Source: Escherichia phage JP4
Sequence record: PQ330092
Reading direction: 5' to 3' (one strand)
Length of the DNA stretch: 64,000 nt
In this document: in pieces, positions 38,187-38,543 of the stretch
How positions within the stretch are numbered: the stretch's first letter is position 1
Layout: every line of letters begins with the position of its first letter
The notes under the pieces: model-generated
What the model was told of the DNA's origin: nothing
Seen by the model: only the letters and a program-made list of their open reading frames with translations
Database searches by the model: none
Position numbers and translations under genes: made by a program

Positions 38187-38543
38187 ATGGGAATACAACA
38201 TATCACGCGTACTACTGACAATGGCGAGATCACTGGCTATCAAGTACAGGGCAAAGTAGCACAATTGCAGTACTGGTTTGTTAAACGTGGAATCATTGCA
38301 CCGGATCTTGATTATGACCGTGTAGCGTTTATTGATTCTCTTTATGTTGATCCTGATAGTCGGGGCAATGGTGAAGGTAACGAATTAATGAATGCCTTTA
38401 TCGATGCCGCCGATGATTCAGATTGTATCATCTTAGAATGCGATACGGGAGAAGATAACGCCTTTAATCTTAAAGAATGGTACGAAGGTTTCGGATTCGA
38501 GGTATTGATAGATAGTGAATATCCTATCATGATTTTATCATAG
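38187..38543 (+). CDS. possible GNAT-family acetyltransferase-like protein (118 aa)
   Basis: VDPDSRGNGEGNELM resembles GNAT motif A (R-G-x-G-x-G); promoter TTGACA..TATAAT upstream. Confidence 0.5.
   Translation: MGIQHITRTTDNGEITGYQVQGKVAQLQYWFVKRGIIAPDLDYDRVAFIDSLYVDPDSRGNGEGNELMNAFIDAADDSDCIILECDTGEDNAFNLKEWYEGFGFEVLIDSEYPIMILS

Follow-up and report, generated by a model that had tools for sequence, protein, structure and literature searches.

The 118-codon gene at positions 38187..38543 (+ strand) of a 64,000-nucleotide stretch of Escherichia phage JP4 DNA (record PQ330092; hereafter, the window) encodes an acetyltransferase of the GNAT fold, an identification on which Pfam models, the modelled fold and conservation agree, with its enzymatic activity being predicted. 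The gene lies inside a long repeat that corresponds to the direct terminal repeat (DTR) of related phages, and it is probable that its product is a minimal, acetyl-CoA-dependent enzyme that is expressed early from the DTR and acetylates a basic host macromolecule in the course of host takeover or counter-defence. In RefSeq and GenBank, identical proteins already bear the name "GNAT family N-acetyltransferase" or "acetyltransferase." The assignment confirms this routine annotation, and is correct but ordinary and changes little; the truncated architecture of the protein, the mobility of the DNA segment that carries its gene and the location of this segment in the DTR are useful details rather than surprises. 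The features described below are listed in Table 1.

Table 1. Coordinates of the GNAT gene and of associated features in the window
Feature	Position	Strand	Basis
CDS, 118-aa minimal GNAT-fold N-acetyltransferase	38187..38543	+	ORF reading, Pfam, PHROG, AlphaFold2 model, fold matches, conservation
Sigma-70 promoter TTGACA-N16-TATAAT of the GNAT gene	38130..38157	+	12/12 consensus match
Shine-Dalgarno sequence GAGGA, 8 nt 5′ of the ATG	38174..38178	+	Direct sequence reading
Hairpin AGGGGAA-acatc-TTCCCCT, without a T-run, at the 3′ edge of the cassette	38586..38604	+	Sequence and extent of alignment
Mobile cassette (promoter, GNAT gene and hairpin)	38120..38609	+	Sole stretch in common with Shigella phage SF1-1
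Perfect sigma-70 promoters	36439, 37015, 38130, 39168, 40409, 40748, 41178, 43599	+	12/12 consensus
One full 20,114-bp direct terminal repeat unit, with the GNAT gene	26792..46905		Self-BLAST
Second GNAT CDS, identical copy	58301..58657	+	Motif scan and self-BLAST
Second copy of the promoter, identical	58244..58271	+	100% identity of the repeats

Identification of a GNAT-fold Acetyltransferase

The open reading frame, which starts with ATG and stops with TAG exactly as given in the initial annotation of this region, encodes a protein of 13.3 kDa with a pI of 4.05 and a net charge of -16, in a family that is strongly acidic as a whole (median pI, 4.4). The same annotation had noted in it a resemblance to the acetyl-CoA-binding motif A of GNAT enzymes, and the residues R59-G60-N61-G62-E63-G64, which lie within VDPDSRGNGEGNELM (residues 54–68), do fit the pattern R/Q-x-x-G-x-G/A exactly. 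A six-residue motif of this kind is weak evidence by itself, because it is also carried by chance: the pattern is present in 11% of 20,000 shuffles of the 118-aa protein, and across those ORFs of the window that are 60 aa or longer it turns up 0.05 times per 118 residues. The caution with which the assignment was put forward, as a tentative one based on a single motif, was therefore appropriate.

The GNAT type itself was borne out, well beyond chance when the whole domain is considered, by three Pfam models scoring above their thresholds, namely PF00583 Acetyltransf_1 (E = 4e-9; 37.2 bits vs. a cut-off of 20.7), PF13508 Acetyltransf_7 (33.5 bits vs. 27) and PF13673 Acetyltransf_10 (26.3 bits vs. 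23.6), by matches to PHROG 1249 and 3810, which are both acetyltransferase families, and by the fold matches of a structural model. In addition, the matches with low E-values in PDB sequence searches were exclusively GNATs. The model, which was built by AlphaFold2 on 42 homologues with a mean pLDDT of 94 and a pTM of 0.86, contains strands at residues 3–10, 13–21, 45–54, 80–84, 105–108 and 114–117 and helices at residues 25–33, 63–74 and 95–100. Structure prediction had been suggested as a check on the assignment, with the lack of a predicted GNAT fold as the outcome that would speak against it, and the fold that was predicted is that of a GNAT: the best 50 PDB matches found by Foldseek are all GNAT enzymes (probability 1.00, TM 0.5–0.66), and the PDB fold matches include Naa60, Naa50, Naa30, RimI, Ard1 and several small-molecule acetyltransferases. 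A search of a viral fold library likewise returned many GNATs of 104–127 aa at a probability of 1.00, and proteins named as GNAT or acetyltransferase account for most of the top matches. In the model, motif A sits between the predicted strand 45–54 and helix 63–74, and Y99-E-G-F-G103-F104 falls within and after helix 95–100; the alpha4 tyrosine followed by x-x-x-G-F is thus present, in the form W98-Y99-x-x-x-G103-F104.

A Truncated GNAT Architecture

The alignment to PF00583 covers positions 53–116 of the 116-position profile, which correspond to residues 42–104 of the protein, so that only the C-terminal half of the profile is represented; six strands and three helices make up the model, where a canonical GNAT has seven and four. 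The canonical N-terminal beta1-alpha1-alpha2 arm (motif C), which normally forms half of the acceptor site, was not found in the window protein. Known minimal GNATs are also devoid of this arm, and for this reason its absence does not exclude the protein from the GNAT superfamily.

Where the Pfam alignment of a homologue extends further, its N-terminal hairpin falls at profile positions ~28–45, and the G-x-x-x-G-Y sequence of the hairpin of this family resembles the pattern that is usual for beta2-turn-beta3 of GNATs; because of this register and this pattern, the N-terminal hairpin is read as beta2-beta3. The identification of the hairpin with these strands, and of helix 25–33 with an insertion, draws on the registers of the Pfam profiles and on knowledge of the GNAT consensus. 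The elements would accordingly be arranged in the order beta2-beta3, a family-specific helix and loop, and beta4-alpha3-beta5-alpha4-beta6-beta7, in which case beta1-alpha1-alpha2 would be missing and the family-specific helix would stand between the hairpin and beta4 instead. A further characteristic of the family is a signature that follows beta5, D86-x-x-E89-x-N91-x-F93-x-L95-x-x-W98-Y99.

Conservation and Selection

An exhaustive homologue search of 1.84 billion cluster representatives (E ≤ 1e-3) identified a total of 290 relatives, most of which are solo proteins of 117–145 aa that align over their full length. The family surfaced only in this exhaustive search; word-indexed searches returned two proteins when started from the single sequence and 10 when started from a profile. 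Among 156 aligned domains, 17 positions are conserved at 80% or more, and all 17 are kept in the window protein (G17, V54, R59, G62, G64, L67, L83, D86, E89, F93, L95, W98, Y99, G103, F104, P113 and M115). Among them are residues of the cofactor loop and the tyrosine of alpha4, which serves as the general acid in many GNATs. The arginine and the two glycines of motif A are conserved in 95%, 97% and 100% of the family, respectively, and Y99 and F104 in 98% and 96%, while the N-terminal positions at which the window protein departs from the consensus include Y29 (N in 77% of the family) and T16 (E in 44%).

This pattern bears on the possibility that the protein is a catalytically inert representative of the GNAT fold, its role being limited to the binding of CoA or of a host factor. 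Such a role would be compatible with the truncated N-terminal arm, but the conservation is centred on catalytic elements, that is, on the loop containing R59, G62 and G64 and on Y99, and an inert binder is considered extremely unlikely.

The dN/dS ratio is 0.05 relative to the gene of phage 121Q, 0.08 relative to that of phAPEC6 and 0.10 relative to that of SF1-1, at dS values of 0.2–0.5, and the GNAT catalytic core is under strong purifying selection. In Escherichia phage CMSTMSU (MH494197; retrieved locus 401..751), two frameshifts interrupt the orthologue, for which the annotation gives a hypothetical protein of 80 aa; since this record bears the flag UNVERIFIED_ORG, the frameshifts may represent sequencing error rather than a pseudogene.

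Relationship to the GNAT Domains of Phage Polyvalent Proteins

Full-length homologues of the window protein occur both as solo proteins and as domains in proteins of 436–2284 aa. The GNAT domain is combined with ART-PolyVal (PF18760) and NUDIX domains in a protein of 2284 aa (P0064), with PARP/ART and ParB_N in one of 436 aa (P0017), with Amidoligase_2 in one of 984 aa (P0069), with DUF5661 in two proteins of 262 and 1047 aa (P0029 and P0130, respectively) and with a 2H-phosphoesterase-like region in one of 925 aa (the L026 protein). Two GNAT families have been described in phage polyvalent proteins (Iyer et al., 2017; PMC5512222), one of which typically has an ART neighbour, includes solo versions, belongs to a RimI-like clade and is predicted to act on protein substrates (PMC5512222). 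The window family likewise shows a GNAT domain beside ART as well as solo forms, and in its architecture it fits this polyvalent-protein family, for which the paper names BAR32501.1 as an example. The two differ in that the window protein is a solo protein that would be expressed from incoming DNA, whereas the polyvalent GNAT is a domain packaged in the virion. What looked like an orphan among the putative early genes can now be placed in the polyvalent-protein GNAT family.

The neighbourhoods of homologues (IMG/VR loci, Logan and ENA contigs, and pMPPla107), for which the locus search was seeded with a seven-sequence alignment, were heterogeneous, with no recurring partner and no clue to the substrate; the neighbours include genes for RtcB, a CCA-adding enzyme, a PP-loop ATPase, AIR synthase, a homing endonuclease, NUDIX, Sir2 and NADAR. 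Homologues with ~30% identity are present on ~1-Mb Pseudomonas megaplasmids, and on pMPPla107 (retrieved locus 5007..5456) the genes near the mini-GNAT include those for Sir2, NADAR and a 3′–5′ exonuclease.

Promoter and Putative Early-Gene Context

A total of eight perfect (12/12) sigma-70 promoters of the form TTGACA-N16/17-TATAAT, including that of the GNAT gene, were found on the + strand within the 11 kb between 33000 and 44000 (Table 1), and every one of them precedes one or two small ORFs. As judged from these signals, the region constitutes a dense array of early genes predicted to be read by the host RNA polymerase. The genes adjacent to the GNAT gene, one for a DksA-like zinc-finger protein and the others small hypothetical ORFs, all have promoters of their own. 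The gene had initially been placed among the early genes of the phage, which is plausible in view of the perfect sigma-70 promoter and the position in the terminal repeat; the timing is to be read as a prediction from these two features.

The upstream neighbour (37865..38122, + strand) encodes an 85-aa DksA/TraR-like C4 zinc-finger protein, which is annotated as such in 121Q (gp294) and fEgEco12 (g030) and is kept in PBECO4, where the GNAT gene is missing; its product is likely an RNA-polymerase secondary-channel binder among the early genes. Downstream, the hairpin at the 3′ edge of the cassette is kept in PBECO4 and SF1-1 and lies directly 5′ of the Shine-Dalgarno sequence of the ORF at 38622..38810.

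Hairpins of another type, which have a 12-bp stem with an embedded promoter (AAAGGGATTGACTCCGGTCAGTCCCTTT then GCTATTATAT), were identified at 39895..39932 and 43164..43201, with a variant at 35875..35912. These promoter-bearing hairpins sit in dispersed repeats of ~230 bp (35859..36089 and 43149..43380; 84% identity), and we take them to resemble the promoter-early stem-loop (PeSL) cassettes of T4-type phages. A separate dispersed repeat of ~220 bp is found inside the terminal repeat unit (30113..30324 vs. 39993..40204; 82% identity).

The Terminal Repeat and the Second Gene Copy

A self-BLAST of the window revealed that 26792..43886 and 46906..64000 are 100% identical over 17,095 bp at an offset of 20,114 bp, with the second repeat unit starting at 46906 and continuing past the end of the window. 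The GNAT gene begins 11,395 bp from the start of its 20,114-bp unit and is present a second time, together with its promoter, in the second unit (Table 1), a copy that was absent from the initial annotation; each feature in 26792..43886 has an exact twin in the window. The position of the gene corresponds to that in fEgEco12, in which positions 11,800–12,156 code for the identical protein g031 and lie inside a direct terminal repeat of 20,993 bp, as confirmed by restriction digests (PMC13070987). The DTR of Sharanji has a length of 20,668 bp, and the record of vB_Ec-M-J lists the GNAT gene under "Direct Terminal Repeats." Because the position of the gene matches that in the fEgEco12 DTR, the repeat of the window is interpreted as the DTR, in the form of a tandem pair. 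On this reading of the sequence, the genome should have its physical end at about 46905/46906 and 26791/26792, and the gene, being inside the DTR, would therefore be present in two copies per packaged genome.

Distribution and Mobility of the GNAT Cassette

The window derives from an Asteriusvirus jumbo phage. The 2-kb region around the GNAT gene is 98.5% identical to that of Escherichia phage UB and 92–98% identical to those of many other Asteriusvirus jumbo phages of ~350 kb (the 121Q and PBECO4 group). Among 42 records of related phages with a match to the region, 22, all of Escherichia phages, carry the GNAT gene, which is absent from PBECO4, slurp01 and the Salmonella SD-series phages. 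In PBECO4, the sequence corresponding to 38141..38560 of the window is replaced by a few bases (retrieved locus 2130..2175), and a single promoter, TTGACA-N17-TATAGT, directly drives the next gene. The Shigella phage SF1-1, a 146-kb phage in which the neighbouring genes are unrelated, shares the cassette (retrieved locus 2934..3433) at 88.7% nucleotide identity, and its promoter sequence recurs directly 3′ of the GNAT gene. In the window, all that is left 3′ of the gene is a crippled promoter remnant, TTTTCA-N7-TATAGT, and CAGTACTG is present at both edges of the cassette (38134..38141 and 38561..38568). A more distant homologue, with 47% identity, is encoded by Klebsiella phage 05F01 (Stephanstirmvirinae), and the cassette DNA had zero matches in 5,426 complete E. 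coli genomes (chromosomes and plasmids).

Since genomes of the PBECO4 type are devoid of the gene and SF1-1 shares the cassette only, the comparison of these sequences shows the GNAT gene to be part of an accessory cassette, flanked by promoters, which phages acquire, lose and pass to one another. Its travel between unrelated coliphages has thereby become visible, and phages of the 121Q type (with the cassette) and of the PBECO4 type (without it) form natural pairs for finding the target of the GNAT.

Proposed Role and Alternative Substrates

In the proposed mechanism, the host RNA polymerase would transcribe the GNAT gene at the very start of infection from the consensus sigma-70 promoter in the DTR. 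The protein would bind acetyl-CoA via the R-x-x-G-x-G pyrophosphate loop, and it retains the half of the fold that serves cofactor binding and catalysis, comprising beta4, the pyrophosphate loop, alpha3, beta5, alpha4 with its conserved tyrosine and beta6-beta7, plus the N-terminal beta-hairpin. It would then acetylate a basic macromolecule of the host at an amino group, with a lysine or the N-terminus of a host protein as the most probable acceptor, and the purpose of this acetylation would be host takeover or counter-defence, as an accessory function. Catalytic activity is predicted from the conserved motifs, and modification of a basic host protein is the best guess as to the substrate. A protein substrate is preferred because the fold neighbours are RimI/Nat-like, because homologous domains occur in polyvalent proteins and because the protein surface is acidic. 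Several findings count against this proposal: the N-terminal acceptor-binding arm is missing, so that the analogy with full-length protein acetyltransferases is weak; the mixed neighbourhoods of the homologues yield no hint of the substrate; the window protein departs from the family consensus at some N-terminal positions; and the fold matches also include glyphosate, agmatine, puromycin and aminoglycoside acetyltransferases. The literature searched contained no experimental study of the GNAT gene or of members of its family, and no Asteriusvirus transcriptome.

The latter matches raise the question of whether the substrate is instead a small cationic molecule, such as a polyamine (as for SpeG, PaiA and SSAT), a metabolite or an antibiotic, for example an aminoglycoside. 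The very acidic nature of the protein would suit such a substrate, profile and fold matches in the PDB include AAC(3)-XI and phosphinothricin, puromycin, agmatine and diamine acetyltransferases, and one GenBank record names the identical protein "PaiA acetyltransferase." Nevertheless, the scores for the corresponding NCBIfam models are low, with 18.8 bits vs. 140 for AAC(6′), 16.4 vs. 380 for Sat4 and 19.9 vs. 170 for ArsN1, and PaiA was matched by a homologue only (24 bits vs. 250). The modification of antibiotics, which had been offered initially as one of the possible functions, finds no backing in these AAC, Sat4 and ArsN equivalog scores, which are far below the cut-offs. Macromolecular targets are also suggested by the polyvalent proteins in which homologous domains are fused to ART and ParB domains (PMC5512222), and a small-molecule substrate is regarded as unlikely.

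Another candidate is an amine linked to a nucleic acid, either that of the amino acid of an aminoacyl-tRNA, as with the toxins TacT, AtaT and KacT, which would shut off host translation, or that of a nucleobase. In favour of this explanation are weak matches, by fold and by profile, to AtaT (6ajm), 7byy, 7ak8 and 5fvj, of which 7ak8 and 5fvj are presumably TacT/KacT-like toxins, the presence of NUDIX and 2H-phosphoesterase/RNA-ligase-like domains beside homologous domains or in fusion with them, and a weak association with ASCH that is below threshold. On the other hand, the N-terminal acetyltransferases outrank the toxins among the matches, the TacT/AtaT/KacT toxins are proteins of ~160–175 aa with a full N-terminal arm, an antitoxin-like partner is absent from the neighbourhood of the GNAT gene, and the strong negative charge is unfavourable for binding RNA or DNA. 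A nucleic-acid-linked substrate is accordingly judged to be very unlikely. Each of the alternatives, including the inert binder discussed above, has less support than the acetylation of a protein.

A more specific form of protein acetylation, which is possible but rather doubtful, is that the GNAT is a takeover or counter-defence effector made from the first-entering DNA that inactivates one specific host protein (an immune protein, RNA polymerase or a nucleoid protein), and that its family represents a distinct minimal GNAT architecture. An effector of this kind would resemble AcrVA5, a small anti-CRISPR acetyltransferase; AcrVA5 was not among the fold or sequence matches listed. If the effector reading were true, the helix between beta3 and beta4 would replace the alpha1-alpha2 arm and would be common to solo phage proteins and injected polyvalent proteins. 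Should the target prove to be a protein of host defence or transcription, the GNAT would provide a compact tool of 13 kDa and add to the examples of takeover based on acetylation.

Comparison with Known Acetyltransferases

The closest relatives are the Asteriusvirus orthologues 121Q gp295 (YP_009101882.1) and fEgEco12 g031 (XBS49113.1), which have 95–100% protein identity, occupy the same place after the DksA-like zinc-finger gene and show no substantive difference from the window gene; their names are computational annotations. In the literature searched, a single functional analogue had been studied by experiment, namely Rac (gp28 of phiKMV-like phages, including LUZ19), a phage-encoded GNAT used for host takeover (PMC7552054). 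Rac differs in its length of 157 aa and in being encoded beside the phage RNAP gene, whereas the window GNAT is encoded in the terminal repeat. Membership in the Rac family was rejected, as an hhalign comparison with LUZ19 gp28 gave a probability of 2.8% over 34 columns around motif A only.

In the fold comparison, RimI and the N-terminal acetyltransferases Naa50, Naa60, Naa30 and Ard1 belong to the top matches, and of the named NCBIfam models RimI scores highest; membership in the RimI equivalog (TIGR01575) was rejected because the score of 20.5 bits is far below the cut-off of 86.4. In comparison with the RimI and Naa enzymes, the window protein is ~30–60 residues shorter and is devoid of the N-terminal arm. 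The resistance GNATs AAC(6′), AAC(3), Sat4 and ArsN were likewise rejected as parent families (16–20 bits vs. NCBIfam cut-offs of 140–380), as were the GNAT toxins TacT, AtaT and KacT, which gave low-ranking fold and profile matches only and for which no adjacent antitoxin gene was found.

The Acetyltransf_CG/YjdJ family (PF14542) resembles the window protein in being well below the usual ~150 aa and in keeping the core of motifs A and B, and weak matches were obtained to PF14542 (19.4 bits vs. a threshold of 30) and to E. coli YjdJ (5i0c). The window family is distinguished from it by an N-terminal G-x-x-x-G-Y hairpin and helix of its own and by the D-x-x-E-x-N-x-F-x-L-x-x-W-Y signature.
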